Virus record (IMG/VR): IMGVR_UViG_3300045988_103986
Coordinates: 32,001 to 96,000 of that record
Source of the DNA: a virus
Length of the DNA: 64,000 nt
Strand: one strand, 5' to 3'
Shown here one piece after another: positions 16,234 through 26,614 of the stretch (positions are counted from its first letter, which is position 1; every line of letters starts with the position of its first letter). Position numbers and translations under genes: made by a program. Below the pieces are notes generated by a model that was not told the origin of the DNA, did not search any database, and was given only the letters and a program-made list of their open reading frames with translations.

Positions 16234-17346
16234 ATGGGATATTCCTACAAATTTAGGCTGTACCCAAATACGGAGCAGGAGAACTTAATACAGCGTACTT
16301 TCGGCTGTGCTCGATTTGTGTATAACCACTTTCTCTCTGAACGCATCACGCAGTATCGAGAAACCGGGAAATCTCCTACACGTTTTCAACAGGACAAAGA
16401 ATTGACGCAGCTGAAGAAATCGGTTGAGTGGCTGAAAGAGGTTGATGCAACCGCACTGCAATCTTCTTTGCAGAGCCTTGATGCCGCCTATCAGAACTTC
16501 TTCCGTCGAGTGAAATCCGGTGAAAAGCCAGGATTCCCACGGTTCAAGAGCAAGCATGACCACCGCAAAAGCTACAAGAGCAAAGCCGTTGGAACAAACA
16601 TCAAAGTATTGGACGGTGCGGTCCAACTGCCGAAACTCGGCAAAGTCAAATGCCGTATCAGCCGAAAGGTTGAGGGCAGAATCCTGTCTGCTACGGTATC
16701 ACAAAATCCGAGCGGCAAATACTTTGTATCGCTCTGCTGCACTGATGTGGAGATTGAGCCGCTTCCAAAGACAGGCTGTGTTATCGGCGTTGACATGGGG
16801 CTGAAAGCATTCGCAATCACGTCCGATGGAACGGAATATCCAAACCCGCGTTATTTAGCCAAGAACCAGAAGAAACTTGCCAGATTACAACGGCAACTCT
16901 CCCGAAAATCAAAGGGGAGCAACCGACGCGAGAAAGCGAGGATTCAGGTGGCGCGGTTACATGAGCACATCGCAAGCCAGCGCAGCGACATGATGCACAA
17001 GCTGTCAACGCAGCTCATCCGGGAGAACGATGTAGTCTGCATCGAAGACTTAGCACCGAAGAACATGGTCAAGAATCATCGCCTTGCGAAGTCCATCAGC
17101 GACGCATCGTGGGGCGAGTTCAGGCGGCGGCTAGAGTACAAGGCCGCGTGGTATGGAAAGAAAGTCATAGCGATAGACCGGTTCTTCCCATCCAGTCAGC
17201 TATGTTCCTGCTGCGGGTATCGGAATACCGGAACAAAGAATCTAGCGGTGCGGGAGTGGACGTGCCCCAAATGCGAAACACACCACGACAGGGACATCAA
17301 CGCCGCGAAAAACATTTTAAGTGAGGGCTTGCGCCTGTTGGCCTAG
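16234..17346 (+). CDS. tnpB: TnpB (IS605 OrfB-family RNA-guided endonuclease)
   Basis: 370 aa: [27 protein letters not shown]; RuvC motifs [18 protein letters not shown]; zinc finger CSCCG...CPKC. Confidence 0.92.
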
Positions 17347-17355
17347 CCAAAACAC

Positions 17356-17472
17356 ACGGTAGGGCGGGACACGCCCGAACCTATACGCTCGTGGAGACTA
17401 TGTAAGACGCAACTACGGCGCAACGGTCAGCGAACCGAGAATCCCCCGGCTTTAGCCGTGGGGAGTGTCAAA
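17356..17472 (+). ncRNA. omega-RNA (reRNA) scaffold of the TnpB element; guide would continue into 17473-~17490
   Basis: Conserved blocks are shared with the other two copies (gggcgggacacgcccga, acgctcgtggaga, gagaatcccccggctttagccgtggggagtgtcaa), with a divergent central stem. The 5' boundary is not determinable by eye. Confidence 0.55.
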
Positions 17473-17511
17473 GGTTGGTTCGGCGGGACGCCGCTGCATG
17501 AGCCTGCATAC

Positions 17512-17588
17512 AGGGGTATCGCCAAGCGGTCTAAGGCATGGGACTTTGACTCCCATATGCGCAGGTTCAAATCCTGCTACCCCTGCCA
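17512..17588 (+). tRNA. tRNA-Gln (anticodon UUG)
   Basis: AGGGGTA-TC-GCCAAGCGGTCTAAGGCA-TGGGA-CTTTGAC-TCCCA-...GCAGG-TTCAAAT-CCTGC-TACCCCT-G-CCA. It resembles Firmicutes tRNA-Gln (GGGGTATCGCCAAGCGG). Confidence 0.8.
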
Positions 17589-18244
17589 GCCGCCCGTTGG
17601 GGTTCTCCGCGCGACTACATTTAACATGGGGAAAAATACGGCTATCCATTCACGCACGCAATAGAGTGATCGTGAATCGTAGCGGCCCCGGCTAAAGGCG
17701 CTGTACCCGCGGCGTCCAAGGAGAACGAGGCAAAAATGCAGCTATATGGGCCAGAAAACGGGATAGTAGCCACGCTGCAATATATGATGGTGCTACGAAG
17801 CTGTAGACGATGAACGCCTGGTAATACAGGACGGCTCAGCCGATAATGAATGAGTAAGATAGCGTCTACGGAAATAGGAGCTGTAGTAAATGGAGTGAAA
17901 TTAACAGCCATCATATCCCCTGCGCTTGATGCGTGGGCTGCCGAAACCAATGCGTGTTTCGGCCAAAAAGGTAAAGGTCAAGCGGATATAGACCTTCGTA
18001 GAGACGGCACAAGTCCATTTTGGAACGTCCCGTTCAGCTTGCCGGGAAAGACTCACTAGTGGTCGAACTGGATGAATCCGCACTTGTTCGTAATGCTTGG
18101 GGCGAACTGAAATCCGCCAAGCTAGGCAGCACCTTTGGGAACGCTTTCAGGACTGCTGATACATAAGCGCCGGTGCGCAACCACCTAATTTGCCGTTGGT
18201 TTGCGCGCAAAACCTCACGTCCGGTACGTTAAGCCGGGATTGAT
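17589..18244 (+). ncRNA. unassigned ~650-nt non-coding region between two tRNAs (candidate large structured RNA)
   Basis: Only short RBS-less ORFs on either strand. Multiple hairpins (attcacg...cgtgaat 17648-17677; ccgaaac...gtttcgg; gcgcaacca...tggtttgcgc). Flanked by tRNA-Gln and tRNA-Met. Confidence 0.35.
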
Positions 18245-18319
18245 GGGCCGTTAGCTCAACGGTAGAGCAAGCCGCTCATAACGGCTCGGTCGTAGGCTCG
18301 ACACCTACACGGCCCACCA
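18245..18319 (+). tRNA. tRNA-Met/Ile2-type (anticodon CAU)
   Basis: GGGCCGT-TA-GCTC-AACGGTA-GAGC-A-AGCCG-CTCATAA-CGGCT-CGGTC-GTAGG-CTCGACA-CCTAC-ACGGCCC-A-CCA. The T-loop has C at position 54, which is unusual. Confidence 0.8.
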
Positions 18320-18346
18320 TTCATTCTTGAGAAAGGAGGATTACAC

Positions 18347-18622
18347 ATGAACAAGGAAGAACTCGTTCAGGCAGTTGCCAGCAAGACCAACATGCCGAAG
18401 ACCGCCAGTTTGGAGGCCATCGATGCCGTTTTCGCAGCAATCGAAGAATCTCTCATTGCGCACGAAGATGTCACTATCGCTGGTTTCGGCAAGTTCACTG
18501 CGAAGTACCAGAAGGCCAGAACCGCGAGAAACCCGGTCACGGGTGGACCGGTCGACGTTCCGGCAAAATTCTCGGTCAAGTTCTCGGCAAGCAGCGTGCT
18601 GAAAAAAGCAGTTGCAAAGTGA
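18347..18622 (+). CDS. hup: HU/IHF-family DNA-binding protein
   Basis: MNKEELVQAVASKTNMPKTASLEAIDAVFAAIEESL...GFGKF...RTARNPVTGGPVDVPAKFSVKFSAS is the classic HU pattern. RBS aaaggagg. Confidence 0.9.
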   Translation: MNKEELVQAVASKTNMPKTASLEAIDAVFAAIEESLIAHEDVTIAGFGKFTAKYQKARTARNPVTGGPVDVPAKFSVKFSASSVLKKAVAK

Positions 18623-18678
18623 ATCATGGGGCTATTTTGCCCCTCTACATAGTAAAATCACAGAAAGGATGCAATTTC

Positions 18679-19224
18679 ATGTTAGATATCAAGATCCATC
18701 GCGGCGATATTTTCTGGATTCGTCAGGACTATAGTGCCGTTGGCTCCGAGCAAAAAAAGAATCGTCCGGCGATCATTGTCAGCAACGACAAAAATAATAC
18801 ATATTCCGAAACTGTAGAGATTGTTTATCTCACAACCGCTGAGAAAAAGCCCATGCCAACACACGTTGCTATCGAAACGATGGGCAAGCAGTCTACTGCA
18901 CTTTGCGAGGCCATCTACACAATCGATAAGGAACGCTTGGAGAACTACTACTGTACATTAACGACCGAGGAAATGAAACTCGTTGACCAGGCTGTTCTCG
19001 TCTCCTTGGGGCTTACGGCCCCCCCTATTTGTACCGTAGCCGCATCACAAGAGCCAGAACCCGAAAAGGTCTGTGTTCCGATCAACCCGCCATTTGGTTT
19101 GGAAGATGCACTCCGCGCAGTGCAGAAGGAACGCGATACACTGCTTGCGCAGAAGGAGATCTACGAGAAAATCTGTGCCGCCGCACTGCCGCGTTGGCCG
19201 AAGGAGGTTGAGTTGGGCGCATGA
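18679..19224 (+). CDS. PemK/MazF-like toxin domain protein with ~70-aa C-terminal extension
   Basis: RGDIFWI...GSEQKKNRPAIIVSNDKNN..SETVEIVYLTT...PTHVAI...ALCEAIYTIDKERL...LTTEEMKLVDQAVLVSLGL matches the MazF/PemK pattern. No canonical antitoxin ORF lies immediately upstream. Confidence 0.7.
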   Translation: MLDIKIHRGDIFWIRQDYSAVGSEQKKNRPAIIVSNDKNNTYSETVEIVYLTTAEKKPMPTHVAIETMGKQSTALCEAIYTIDKERLENYYCTLTTEEMKLVDQAVLVSLGLTAPPICTVAASQEPEPEKVCVPINPPFGLEDALRAVQKERDTLLAQKEIYEKICAAALPRWPKEVELGA

Positions 19225-20306
19225 TTTATCTTGACCACGCAGCTACTTCTCCTGCGCTTCAATGCGCGAAGGTCGCCTTCAACGCGGTTTCAGCAACAAT
19301 ATGGGGAAATCCGAACTCTCTGCATTCCTTCGGGCAGGACGCCAGAAAGATGCTGGAATCCTCCAGAGAGAGTGTGGCGCGGTGCTTGGGGTGTGAGCCG
19401 GAACAGGTGTTCTTCGTTTCCTCTGCAACAGAAGCTTGCAGGATTGCAATCACGAGAATGACGGAATCATGCAAAAAGGTCCATGTAACGAAAGTAGAAC
19501 ATGCAGCCGTAACCAGCATGACAGACCGCAAGGTATATAGTGACCGCCGGAACGATAATCGTGGTTTTGTGCATATCCACACTAACAACGAAACTGGCGA
19601 AATATACGATTTGAAAAGTGCTTTTTCAGGGTATGATTTGACGTTCTCCGACTGTACCGCAGCCATGGGGAAGCAAAAAATCAACTTCCGTGAAAGCGGC
19701 ATAAACTTCATATGTGGATCAGGGCATAAGATCGGCGCTCCGGTTGGAATTGGTGTTCTGATTGCAAAGAACCCAGCGGACATCACTGAACGTTTCCATT
19801 TTGGCACACCATCTGTTCCCCTTGCTGCCGCATTTGCATCGGCATTGGAGTTCCGCACCAAAGAGATAGATTTGTTTGCTGGCGTAACAGAATTCTTGCA
19901 TGACCGCCTGATTGATGGTATCATGAATGAAATACCAGACGCGCAGTTCAACGGTTGTCCGTGCTTCAGGCATCAGATGAAGCAATCTCCGTACATTGCA
20001 AACATCTCTTTCCCAGGCATCGAAAACCACGCGCTTGTCCTGCGGCTTGCCGCTGATGGCCTGATGGTTTCTTCCGGCGCGGCGTGTTCCAGCGGTGACA
20101 ATGAGCCATCTCGCGTGCTTCTTGCTTCCGGGTATTCTGAGGAACGTGCACGGTCAGCTATCCGTTTCAGTTTCGATTACAAGCTTGATTTCGATGCAAA
20201 CGATATGGGCAACAACTACGGGTTGAACCTTGAACGCGATGCAAGAATCATCGACGAGGCCGTGAAGATCGTGGCTCAGAACGTGCGGGAAATGAGGGGT
20301 ATATAA
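19221..20306 (+). CDS. cysteine desulfurase (NifS/IscS-like, class V aminotransferase)
   Basis: IYLDHAATSP...GNPNSLHSFG; PLP-lysine motif SGHKIGAPVGIGVL; active-site SSGAACSSG. ATGA overlap with the upstream gene. Confidence 0.85.
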   Translation: MIYLDHAATSPALQCAKVAFNAVSATIWGNPNSLHSFGQDARKMLESSRESVARCLGCEPEQVFFVSSATEACRIAITRMTESCKKVHVTKVEHAAVTSMTDRKVYSDRRNDNRGFVHIHTNNETGEIYDLKSAFSGYDLTFSDCTAAMGKQKINFRESGINFICGSGHKIGAPVGIGVLIAKNPADITERFHFGTPSVPLAAAFASALEFRTKEIDLFAGVTEFLHDRLIDGIMNEIPDAQFNGCPCFRHQMKQSPYIANISFPGIENHALVLRLAADGLMVSSGAACSSGDNEPSRVLLASGYSEERARSAIRFSFDYKLDFDANDMGNNYGLNLERDARIIDEAVKIVAQNVREMRGI

Positions 20307-24133: not shown

Positions 24134-24355
24134 CTATTCCTGACTACCGTTCGGTGTGCTGTTCTTATCTTCGCTCTTGGCGCTCTGATAGCCGAAGTAG
24201 AACGTCAGAACCATCACTATGATGGAATAAAAGTCCTTCGGTTCTACCTTGTCACGAAGTGCCATTGCAACAAACGCACCCGTGAGTACAATCGTTACGA
24301 GTGACTTGACCTTAAAAAGGTTCTCGATGATGACTTGCCACCAGCTGTTTTTCAT
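24134..24355 (-). CDS. holin-like small membrane protein
   Basis: 73 aa, two hydrophobic segments (SLVTIVLTGAFVAMAL, FYSIIVMVLTFYFGY) and a charged C-terminus. Immediately upstream of the lysin. Confidence 0.65.
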   Translation of the reverse strand: MKNSWWQVIIENLFKVKSLVTIVLTGAFVAMALRDKVEPKDFYSIIVMVLTFYFGYQSAKSEDKNSTPNGSQE

Positions 24356-24369
24356 AATAGTTTCCCTTC

Positions 24370-24636
24370 TCAGTCTTTAAGGACTGCTTCAATGATTCGT
24401 GCGGTTGCATCCAAGCCATGCTTTTCCGCCAGTTCCCGTACAAATATGAGTGCGTACTTGCTTCTATTTTCGTTCTTTGCTTTCCAGAAATAAAATCCGG
24501 TAGCTGCAGAAACCTCTACGATCCACCCGCAGAGTACCGTTGCAGCAGCTGCTTTATCGTCAGCAGCCAGGAAAATGACGATAAACACAACAAGCATCAG
24601 ATACGAGAAAATGAGAATGCGTTTGCTCCATTCCAT
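24370..24636 (-). CDS. membrane protein of the lysis cassette
   Basis: MEWSKRILIFSYLMLVVFIVIFLAA...LCGWIVEVSAATGFYFW. The start is chosen after the upstream stop; the track start 24660 overlaps. Confidence 0.55.
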   Translation of the reverse strand: MEWSKRILIFSYLMLVVFIVIFLAADDKAAAATVLCGWIVEVSAATGFYFWKAKNENRSKYALIFVRELAEKHGLDATARIIEAVLKD

Positions 24637-24641
24637 TCCTT

Positions 24642-24947
24642 TTAAGACACCACTTCCCATTCGTCCACTTCCTTCTTGATTTTTTCGATGAAAGAATTGC
24701 CCTTGAGTGCCTTGTATGCCTTGTACGAATATTCGAAATTTTCGGCTTCGTACTGGCGGATCTTTTGTGTGTCCTTATTCTTGTAATAGGTGTGCAGCAT
24801 GTCAGAACGAAGTTGACACTTCATTCCGGCCTTGATCGCGCTATCCCCCATGACCCACTCACGGATTGGCTTAACCAGAACCACCAGTACAGCGCCAATC
24901 GTAGTAATCCCACCAAAGATGGTCACGATATCTTTGAAAGTTTCCAT
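24642..24947 (-). CDS. membrane-anchored protein of the lysis cassette
   Basis: The N-terminal TM helix IVTIFGGITTIGAVLVVLV is followed by a charged soluble part. Confidence 0.55.
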   Translation of the reverse strand: METFKDIVTIFGGITTIGAVLVVLVKPIREWVMGDSAIKAGMKCQLRSDMLHTYYKNKDTQKIRQYEAENFEYSYKAYKALKGNSFIEKIKKEVDEWEVVS

Positions 24948-24974
24948 TGCTTTTCTCCAATCATTCGATATTGA

Positions 24975-25060
24975 CGAAGCAAAAGAGAGCCGCGAACGCA
25001 GCCATCTTTTGCTTCGCTCGCGGCCCTCTTCGGCCCTTCTGCGCCGCCCTTTCAGCGCAG
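24975..25060 (-). promoter_or_regulatory. module-leader element, copy 3 (small GC hairpin - GAAGAG - terminator-like hairpin + U tract)
   Basis: Minus strand: ctgcgctgaaagggcggcgcag...GAAGAG-ggccgcgagcg...cgttcgcggctctcttttgc. Same architecture as 43365-43444 and 63661-63738. Confidence 0.4.
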
Positions 25061-25201
25061 GACACTATGGTTTTTTATTTCACAGCGGGAGGTGGAATCC
25101 ACTTGCCGCAGAAGAAATGAATACAGGCACTGATTCCGTATGCTGTGTCGGTGAATGATCTGCACAGTTTTGCTCCATGGTTGTTGAGCACGGGACCAAT
25201 C

Positions 25202-25373
25202 TCACTCATCGTTTGCGCCCTTTCTGGCTTTTCGCCGTGTCACACGTTCAATCTGCCTGCTTGTCTTCTTGAACTGGGTTCCTTTGCAGACCCAGTACAA
25301 ATTCGTTTCCTCAATTACGTCGAAGGTCTCTCCGGATTTGAGTTTGAGAATGTATTGCGCAGTTTTCCTTTCA
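25202..25373 (-). pseudogene. small gene split by the TnpB element (remaining 5 nt ATGGC at 26695-26699)
   Basis: Deleting 25374-26694 joins RBS ggaaggggg-N7-ATGGC to TGAAAGGAAAACT..., giving an in-frame 58-aa ORF MAERKTAQYILKLKSGETFDVIEETNLYWVCKGTQFKKTSRQIERVTRRKARKGANDE. Confidence 0.55.
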
Positions 25374-25485
25374 TTGACACTCCCCACGGCTAAAGCCGGG
25401 GGATTCTCGTTTCTACGACCGCTGCCTGCACCTGCGAGGTCTACGCAATCTCCACGAGCGTTAATTCGGGCGTGTCCCGCCCTAT
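25374..25485 (-). ncRNA. omega-RNA (reRNA) scaffold of the second TnpB element
   Basis: It shares the conserved blocks with the 17356-17472 copy but has a different central segment (ttgcgtagacctcgcaggtgcaggcagcggtcgtagaaac). Confidence 0.5.
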
Positions 25486-25510
25486 TGTTGATTTCCATAA
25501 TGATTCCTTT

Positions 25511-26614
25511 CTACGCCATTAGGCGCATTCCTTCGTGCAAAATGTTCTTCGCGGCGTTGATGTCCCGATCATGACGCGTCCCACATTTGGGGCACGTCCA
25601 CTCCCGCACCGCCAGATTCTTTGTGCCGATGTTCCGATATCCGCAACAGGAGCATAGCTGGCTGGAAGGGAAGAAACGGTCTATCTGTATGACCTTTTTC
25701 CCATACCACGCGGCTTTGTATTCTAACTGCCGTCGGAACTCGCCCCATGATGCGTCGCTGATGGACTTCGCAAGGCGATGGTTCTTGACCATGTTCTGCG
25801 GTGCTAAGTCTTCGATGCAGACTACATCGTTCTCCCGGATGAGTTGCGTTGACAGTTTGTGCATCATGTCGCTGCGCTGGTTTGTGATATGCTCATGCAG
25901 CCGTGCCACCTGAAGCCTCGCTTTCTCGTGCCGGTTGCTCCCCTTTGGTTTTCGGGAGAGCAGCCGTTGTAGTCTGGCAAGTTTCTTCTGGCTCTTGGCT
26001 AAATAACGCGGGTTTGGATATTCCGTTCCATCTGACGTAATTGCGAATGCTTTCAGCCCCATATCAACGCCGATAACACAGCCTGTCTTTGGAAGCGGCT
26101 CAATCTCCACATCAGTGCAGCAGAGCGATACGAAGTATTTCCCGCTGGGATTCTGAGATATCGTGGCCGATAAAATGCGCCCTTTGACTTCCTTTGAAAC
26201 CCGACACTTGACATGTCCCAACTTTGGAAGCTGGACTGCATTTTCAAAAATCTTGATGTTGCAATTCGTCGTGTAACTCTGTCTATGGTCGCGCTTGCTT
26301 TTGAACTTTGGAAAACCGGGCTTCTCACCGTTCTTTACTCGGCGAAAAAAGTTCTTATATGCAGCGTCCAAGTATTTCAGCGCATTTTTTAAAGCGCACT
26401 TATCTGGTTCTTGTAGCCATTCGAGTTCCTTTTTTAGTGCAGTGAGTTCCTTGTCCTGCTGAAAACGTGTAGGAGATTTCCCAGTTTCTCTATACTGCGC
26501 GATACGCTCAGCGAGAAAGTAGTTATACACAAACCGGACACATCCGAAAGTGTGCTGTATTAAGTTTCTCTGAGCCGAATTTGGGTACAGCCTAAATTGA
26601 TAGGAATATTCCAT
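25511..26614 (-). CDS. tnpB: TnpB (IS605 OrfB-family RNA-guided endonuclease), second copy
   Basis: 367 aa. The N-half is diverged from the 16234-17346 copy; the C-half is nearly identical. [18 protein letters not shown] and CSCCG...CPKC are intact. Confidence 0.92.

Follow-up and report, generated by a model that had tools for sequence, protein, structure and literature searches.

Large, intricately folded RNAs are rare in bacteria and their phages, and one of them, ROOL, self-assembles into a homo-octameric cage. The spacers in ordinary bacterial tRNA operons are short and are not conserved. ROOL and GOLLD are both large RNAs of phages and prophages that are often found close to tRNA islands, and both form RNA-only cages, the role of which is unknown (PMC12286853). 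GOLLD combines a 3' region that is conserved with a 5' region that varies (PMC12286853). Structured RNAs in IMG/VR have been surveyed, and that survey lists motifs of 29-151 nt only (PMC10690425).

The locus described here was found in a stretch of viral DNA of 64,000 nt, analysed as a whole and referred to below as the window. It derives from a temperate tailed phage, as seen from genes for a tape-measure protein, a tyrosine integrase and a CHAP/NAGPA/SH3 lysin. The host is probably a member of the Oscillospiraceae, judging from the closest relatives of the TnpB sequence (70-79% identity), which belong to Oscillibacter, Pseudoflavonifractor, Flavonifractor and Butyricicoccus. The initial annotation had drawn attention to a gap of ~650 nt between a tRNA-Gln and a tRNA-Met gene, with an HU gene next in line, and this arrangement was borne out. 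The genes for tRNA-Gln(UUG) (17512-17588, +) and tRNA-Met(CAU) (18245-18319, +) both have an encoded CCA, were both identified by ARAGORN, and match the Rfam tRNA model with 64.8 and 62.6 bits, respectively. Because the first ends at 17588 and the second begins at 18245, the gap is exactly 17589-18244, or 656 nt. The HU-family gene follows at 18347-18622 (PF00216, E=8e-27) and has a strong ribosome-binding site. The gap had also been called GC-rich, which we do not see: its GC content is 52.0%, compared to 51.2% in the window. Its + strand is purine-rich (55%). The description of the gap as the longest gene-free stretch is roughly right, but when ORF-poor stretches are defined by ORFs of at least 110 aa, the surrounding stretch 17347-18618 (1272 nt) ties with 24223-25510 (1288 nt). 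In relatives, small genes are called within the latter, which in the window adjoins a second TnpB gene (25511-26614, -).

We propose that the gap encodes a functional, structured non-coding RNA of ~650 nt that belongs to a family absent from Rfam, and we put the probability of this reading at roughly 70%. The candidate RNA, taken as a whole unit of 656 nt (17589-18244, +), shares its strand with the flanking tRNAs and is conserved beyond the adjacent protein genes. It consists of invariant blocks and of swappable modules that retain their closing helices.

Directly after HU lies a gene with a PemK/MazF-like toxin domain (18619-19224), which has a C-terminal extension of ~70 aa and no obvious antitoxin gene adjacent to it. 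Downstream of the toxin gene is a class-V aminotransferase or cysteine-desulfurase-like gene (19221-20306), with a called length that ranges from 272 to 374 aa among relatives.

The locus was compared with the covariance models of Rfam 15. At gathering thresholds, the whole window returned tRNAs only, and a search of 17200-18500 with permissive filters and E<=10 returned only tRNAs and chance-level matches. When the gap loci of ten relatives were searched, there was again no match to ROOL, GOLLD or any other family, with tRNAs as the only hits. As a positive control, the same tool detected GOLLD (RF02032) in Caulobacter phage phiCbK with 165.3 bits and E=6.6e-46, at the coordinates published for it (PMC12286853). 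As Rfam gives no match up to E<=10, the gap is not a detectable member of ROOL or GOLLD, and the suggestion in the initial annotation that the gap belongs to one of these families fails for the window and for the ten relatives alike. The broader idea of a large structured non-coding RNA fared better, in that the gap is non-coding, is conserved beyond its neighbours, and gives a fold signal in two of its three domains. The candidates tmRNA, RNase P RNA, group I and II introns and riboswitches were rejected, since neither covariance models nor ARAGORN gave a match. Queries of the GenBank phage collection with the whole gap and with the 3' domain gave no match or chance-level matches only, and a scan of representative isolate genomes with the core motif gave 0 matches. 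In the literature, which we covered in part, we found no description of the candidate RNA; an earlier description is possible.

The Rfam models could have missed a member of ROOL or GOLLD that has diverged strongly, and such a member would fit the setting in a phage tRNA island, a size within the ROOL range and a GOLLD-like layout, conserved towards the 3' end and variable towards the 5' end. We nonetheless consider it improbable, given that neither the window nor its relatives produced a match at E<=10 with permissive filters when the phiCbK control reached 165 bits, and that no GenBank phage proved similar in sequence.

The gap is non-coding. Three overlapping ORFs had been noted on both strands, all without a ribosome-binding site, and we confirm that none is preceded by a Shine-Dalgarno motif: they encode 102 aa (17642-17950, -), 69 aa (17850-18059, +) and 60 aa (17901-18083, -), and none of the three matched a family in Pfam or PHROG. 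Over the 39 distinct versions of the locus, variable columns are distributed over the codon positions as 77/80/72 (p=0.81), which means that there is no periodicity. Most indel runs (248/276) break the frame, their lengths not being multiples of 3, and the ORFs seen in the window are intact in just 3-17 of the 39 versions. Long open frames, of up to 190 codons, are found only on the pyrimidine-rich minus strand of the gap. In one relative, L048, three overlapping minus-strand frames are open simultaneously, and because up to three frames can be open together in one sequence, we ascribe the openness of this strand to its composition.

Gene callers annotate an 89-aa product antisense to the candidate RNA (window 17642-17911, -), and this exact product is recorded in 32 blocks of public assemblies. 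We reject this 'protein' as a spurious call from a stop-poor, pyrimidine-rich strand. Short transcript-like contigs were sought by means of the 89-aa ORF, and only long genomic contigs were recovered. A 48-aa ORF in the gap has a weak match in PHROG (E=0.0048), which we dismiss because the start codon is not conserved, a ribosome-binding site and codon periodicity are absent, and the E-value is borderline. The notion that the gap encodes one or more small proteins can thus draw on the presence of ORFs of 48-102 aa, on the recurrent 89-aa product and on one PHROG match, but it is contradicted by the lack of periodicity, the frame-breaking indels, the unconserved ORFs, the want of any ribosome-binding site or Pfam family, the unconserved start of the 48-aa ORF and the compositional origin of the minus-strand frames, and we find it barely credible. 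There is a more general problem of annotation here, as the purine-rich strand of the RNA causes gene callers to predict spurious proteins on the opposite strand, one of which now recurs in public assemblies.

Relatives of the locus were collected by exact-protein and motif look-ups, and a complete interval from tRNA-Gln to tRNA-Met was required. This gave 57 loci in 39 distinct versions of 360-982 nt, all from human-gut assemblies, with full-length relatives of the candidate RNA measuring 616-785 nt. Both tRNAs flank the candidate RNA in every complete locus and are its sole constant neighbours; TnpB is missing from 21 of the 33 loci that have enough flanking sequence, and HU/PemK from 9 of ~49. 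Among phages in which nucleotide identity is down to 80% for HU, 80% for PemK and 73% for the aminotransferase gene, the median is 93% in the RNA core and 95.5% at the RNA 3' end, values close to those of the flanking tRNAs. A search based on HU for remoter phages led back to the same lineage only, and two scans of viral contigs with shorter motifs found mostly unrelated coding sequences. As far as the searched databases show, the candidate RNA is probably confined to one human-gut phage lineage. Because all homologs come from this single lineage and are 80-100% identical, they represent few independent evolutionary events, and recent recombinational spread of the tRNA island could account for part of the high identity. 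Two natural deletion forms have lost the conserved core but retain both tRNAs (L035:6789-7148, 360 nt, and L041:1487-1928, 442 nt), and in L041 the deletion is bordered by short direct repeats (CTTG). The core is therefore dispensable in at least some genomes.

It could be argued from these data that the interval merely spaces the genes of a tRNA operon, with no function or one in cis only, that its sequence identity stems from recent recombinational spread of the tRNA island and not from selection on the RNA, and that its helices arise by chance. Such a spacer would be compatible with flanking tRNAs that are equally conserved, and with the retention of both tRNAs in the deletion variants. In neutral DNA, however, one would not expect to see, within 650 nt, blocks that hardly vary next to several cassettes that cannot be aligned, and the spacers of phage tRNA arrays are normally tens of bases long, not 650. 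The structural data that bear on this reading are given further below.

The upstream neighbour of the tRNA island in the window is a TnpB gene (16234-17346, +; OrfB_IS605 and Cas12f-like TNB domains), with a presumed guide-RNA region, both within 16234-17471. We place the right end of the TnpB element at 17471 because homology to another TnpB copy stops there, and phages that lack TnpB become homologous from 17472 onwards; this end abuts the 40-nt leader of tRNA-Gln. As TnpB is encoded on the same strand, 240 nt upstream, the candidate RNA might be taken for a guide (omega) RNA or for some other portion of the insertion sequence, and an omega RNA was considered with regard to overlap with the 3' end of tnpB, the right end of the element and co-occurrence. 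The loci without TnpB refute it. The candidate RNA is not a TnpB guide RNA, since it lies beyond the right end of the element, which stops ahead of tRNA-Gln, and since it occurs without TnpB in 21/33 loci; we regard any membership in the TnpB element as next to impossible.

Since the phage is temperate and the gap is conserved, non-coding and only a few kb from an integrase gene, it might also act at the level of DNA, serving as an origin of replication or as a site of packaging or attachment. The gap was searched for direct repeats, iterons and tandem arrays, and none was found; an origin-like or array-like element is unlikely for this reason. Nor is the gap AT-rich, the integrase lies 4 kb away with genes intervening, and in domains 1 and 2 (see below) the fold signal is stronger on the tRNA strand. 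We judge a DNA-level element to be very improbable. Just downstream of the integrase gene is a tRNA-Gly(UCC) (14008-14081), overlapped by a called minus-strand ORF of 246 aa that is probably spurious, and the region 12565-14214 may be the attachment-site region.

In the alignments of the candidate RNA we see near-invariant blocks interrupted by modules that are swapped wholesale, and three domains can be distinguished on the + strand. Domain 1 (17589-17781) is supported by its alifold z-score, a compensatory hairpin and the folds of its cassette. It starts with a 5' block that is invariant in the alignment (17589-17613), followed by the swappable cassette A (~17614-17692), for which there are three alleles, unrelated in sequence, that fold alike, each with an outer helix, an internal loop and an inner helix. 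The hairpin at 17697-17703:17710-17716 has 3 double-sided pairs, and although 5 of its 7 pairs vary, its pairing is 100% canonical. Domain 1 also contains the conserved segment AAGGAGAACGAGGC...GCAGC/GCUGC.

Domain 2 (17782-17965), supported by both single-sequence and alifold z-scores, has an invariant 10-bp helix (17782-17791:17907-17916) stacked on a covarying closing helix (17792-17796:17883-17887) with 3 double-sided pairs. The latter closes variable domain B (17797-17882), of which there are at least 7 alleles of 44-104 nt, and these alleles, though unrelated in sequence, keep the same closure when folded independently. Two hairpins follow, at 17919-17937 and 17940-17963, the second having a loop that accepts an insertion after 17950. 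An optional insertion of 68 nt is carried in this loop by 23 of 36 sequences, and it comprises a hairpin capped by GAAA and a stem that covaries (GCGAG/CUCGU versus GCAAG/CUUGU). A further optional insertion, of 103 nt, is found after 17781. In one relative, the variable domain of the RNA contains a 329-nt insertion (L020:6136-6458, corresponding to ~17798 in the window) with a ribosome-binding site and a small ORF rich in Cys (MEELTFKVCDHCHGKM...).

Domain 3 (17966-18244), with its near-invariant blocks, is the most conserved part in sequence. It comprises hairpins at 17974-17979:17991-17996 and, at its terminus, at 18221-18225:18233-18237, a helix at 18173-18185:18195-18208, and a near-invariant core at 17997-18085. 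A pairing of AAGGUC with GACCUU in this domain becomes AAGAUC with GAUCUU in 4 sequences. Adjoining the core is module C (18086-18122), a candidate H-type pseudoknot in which helix a (18086-18091:18102-18107) crosses helix b (18095-18100:18117-18122). Module C has two main alleles and 14 distinct versions, and both helices are kept in crossing order in 14/14. Helix a exists in two versions of unrelated sequence, GUUCGU/GCGAAC and CUCGUU/AACGAG.

How strongly the data support a conserved structure differs between the domains and between the methods used. The initial annotation had spoken of many local stems, but the single-sequence MFE z-score of the whole gap, -0.33 (+) and -0.95 (-), is no better than for shuffled sequences. 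By domain, the + strand values are -0.06, -2.74 and -0.20 for domains 1, 2 and 3, respectively, and the structure predicted from the window sequence alone was preserved no better than in coding controls. Tests in which the RNA and the controls were handled alike did yield a signal. Column-shuffle alifold z-scores are -4.32 (+) versus -2.50 (-) for domain 1 and -5.02 (+) versus -3.24 (-) for domain 2, and the + strand values of both lie outside the range of six coding controls (+0.31 to -1.98). Domain 3 gives no consensus-fold signal on the + strand (-1.11) and a stronger value on the minus strand (-2.54). A scan for conserved local stems gave counts of 14 for the + strand of the RNA, 9 for its - strand and 2-11 for the coding controls; among all of these stems, the hairpin 17697-17703:17710-17716 alone had two or more compensatory pairs.

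RNAalifold predicted 143-180 pairs from the alignment. In its structure pairing is kept in 97.2% of cells, and double-sided changes are seen at 16 pairs (119 cells), which is well above slid and shuffled controls. The identical procedure of prediction and counting, applied to coding DNA of equal length from the same genomes, gave 97.1% with 9 pairs and 80 cells in one case and 93.5% with 24 pairs and 160 cells in another. Raw covariation counts are therefore not discriminating, as coding controls reach comparable figures. The check for covariation in syntenic regions that had been recommended for this locus yields one hairpin with 3 compensatory pairs, but its raw counts are equalled by coding DNA. 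Two global folds conflict on their long-range helices. A comparison of all columns against all was discarded as too noisy, because the cassette haplotypes are linked. We give little weight to a mirror-structure strand test (97.2% versus 87.5%), since it used a structure that had been optimised on the + strand, a source of bias.

The structural data return us to the tRNA-operon spacer. That coding controls equal the covariation counts, and that most MFE z-scores are insignificant, is as expected if the helices arose by chance. Chance helices would not, however, place the consensus-fold z-scores of domains 1 and 2 far outside the controls, nor would the closing helices and the pseudoknot be expected to survive replacement of the modules. 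We consider a functionless or cis-acting spacer unlikely, if less so than a divergent member of ROOL or GOLLD. For the structured RNA that we prefer, conserved structure in the 5' two-thirds and in the pseudoknot module is well supported, while in the invariant 3' core, domain 3, it is unproven, because there is too little variation to test it and pseudoknots defeat folding tools. Overall, the evidence for structure is good but not overwhelming.

The arrangement of the locus suggests how the candidate RNA may be made. No promoter-like or terminator-like site was found between tRNA-Gln, the candidate RNA, tRNA-Met and HU, and because nothing of this kind separates them, we infer that they are transcribed rightward as a single transcript. 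The RNA would then be freed by tRNA processing, with 3' maturation of tRNA-Gln producing its 5' end and an RNase P cut at 18244/18245, the 5' end of tRNA-Met, producing its 3' end. It would fold into three domains, the first two peripheral and tolerant of module exchange, insertions and deletions, and the third an invariant 3' core with the pseudoknot. By analogy with ROOL and GOLLD only, the RNA might act in trans during phage growth, and the invariant core might contact a partner, which by the same analogy could be another copy of the RNA, a protein, or the translation or tRNA machinery.

Some relatives contain a second conserved, modular non-coding stretch flanked by tRNAs, of 830-1165 nt, which is absent from the window. 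It was located at L001:4001-5165, L004:4301-5165, L006:4086-5205 and L056:9152-10301, bordered by tRNA-Pro (or a second tRNA-Gln) on one side and by tRNA-Gln on the other. Compared to L001, the window lacks ~1.4 kb, comprising tRNA-Pro and this stretch, at the junction of TnpB and tRNA-Gln. The second stretch lacks codon periodicity (31/28/27), and its consensus fold is very stable. It is not similar to the gap RNA and has no match in Rfam; over the tRNA island of L001 (L001:3900-6000), a search at E<=10 detected no ROOL, no GOLLD and no other family. It may be a second large RNA of the same tRNA island.

There is a little under an even chance, in our estimation, that phage tRNA islands harbour, besides ROOL and GOLLD, a third class of large RNAs that is structurally unrelated to these two, with the candidate RNA as its first member. 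If so, and if the RNA self-assembles or engages the translation or tRNA machinery, giant RNAs would be a recurrent, convergent strategy of phages; the alternative is to see ROOL and GOLLD as two isolated curiosities. A third unrelated large RNA would also provide an independent system in which to ask why phages put giant RNAs among their tRNAs. The candidate RNA is abundant in human-gut phages of Oscillospiraceae, and natural variants with swapped modules, insertions and deletions already exist.

With regard to known systems, the locus can be compared with the punctuated processing of tRNA operons by RNase P and RNase Z cuts. As in such operons, the candidate RNA fills the exact interval from the 3' end of one tRNA to the 5' end of the next and has no promoter or terminator of its own; the difference is that for the candidate RNA such processing is deduced here from the layout. 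The likeness to ROOL (RF03087) begins with the location in a phage beside tRNAs, a mark of that family which the gap shares. The length of 656 nt fits that of ROOL (~550-660 nt), and there is no linked protein partner gene. The candidate RNA is also, like ROOL, heavily base-paired by prediction, and one pseudoknot is supported in it; ROOL has multiple pseudoknots. A long terminal helix like that of ROOL is predicted in only one of the two alternative folds of the candidate RNA and is missing from the other. The two differ in that no covariance-model match was obtained at any threshold tried and no sequence similarity can be detected.

GOLLD (RF02032) differs from the candidate RNA in that the model of its conserved 3' region gives no match, and in that it is typically >800 nt and sometimes has nested tRNAs, whereas the candidate RNA has 656 nt and no internal tRNA. 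What the two have in common, as a matter of layout only, is the phage tRNA island and a conserved 3' part, here domain 3, preceded by the cassette-bearing domains 1-2. The window RNA stands alone, as the upstream non-coding stretch is absent, but in relatives a tRNA lies between two large non-coding stretches, an arrangement reminiscent of the nested tRNAs of GOLLD. The candidate RNA probably belongs with the large RNAs of phage tRNA islands, outside the ROOL and GOLLD families.
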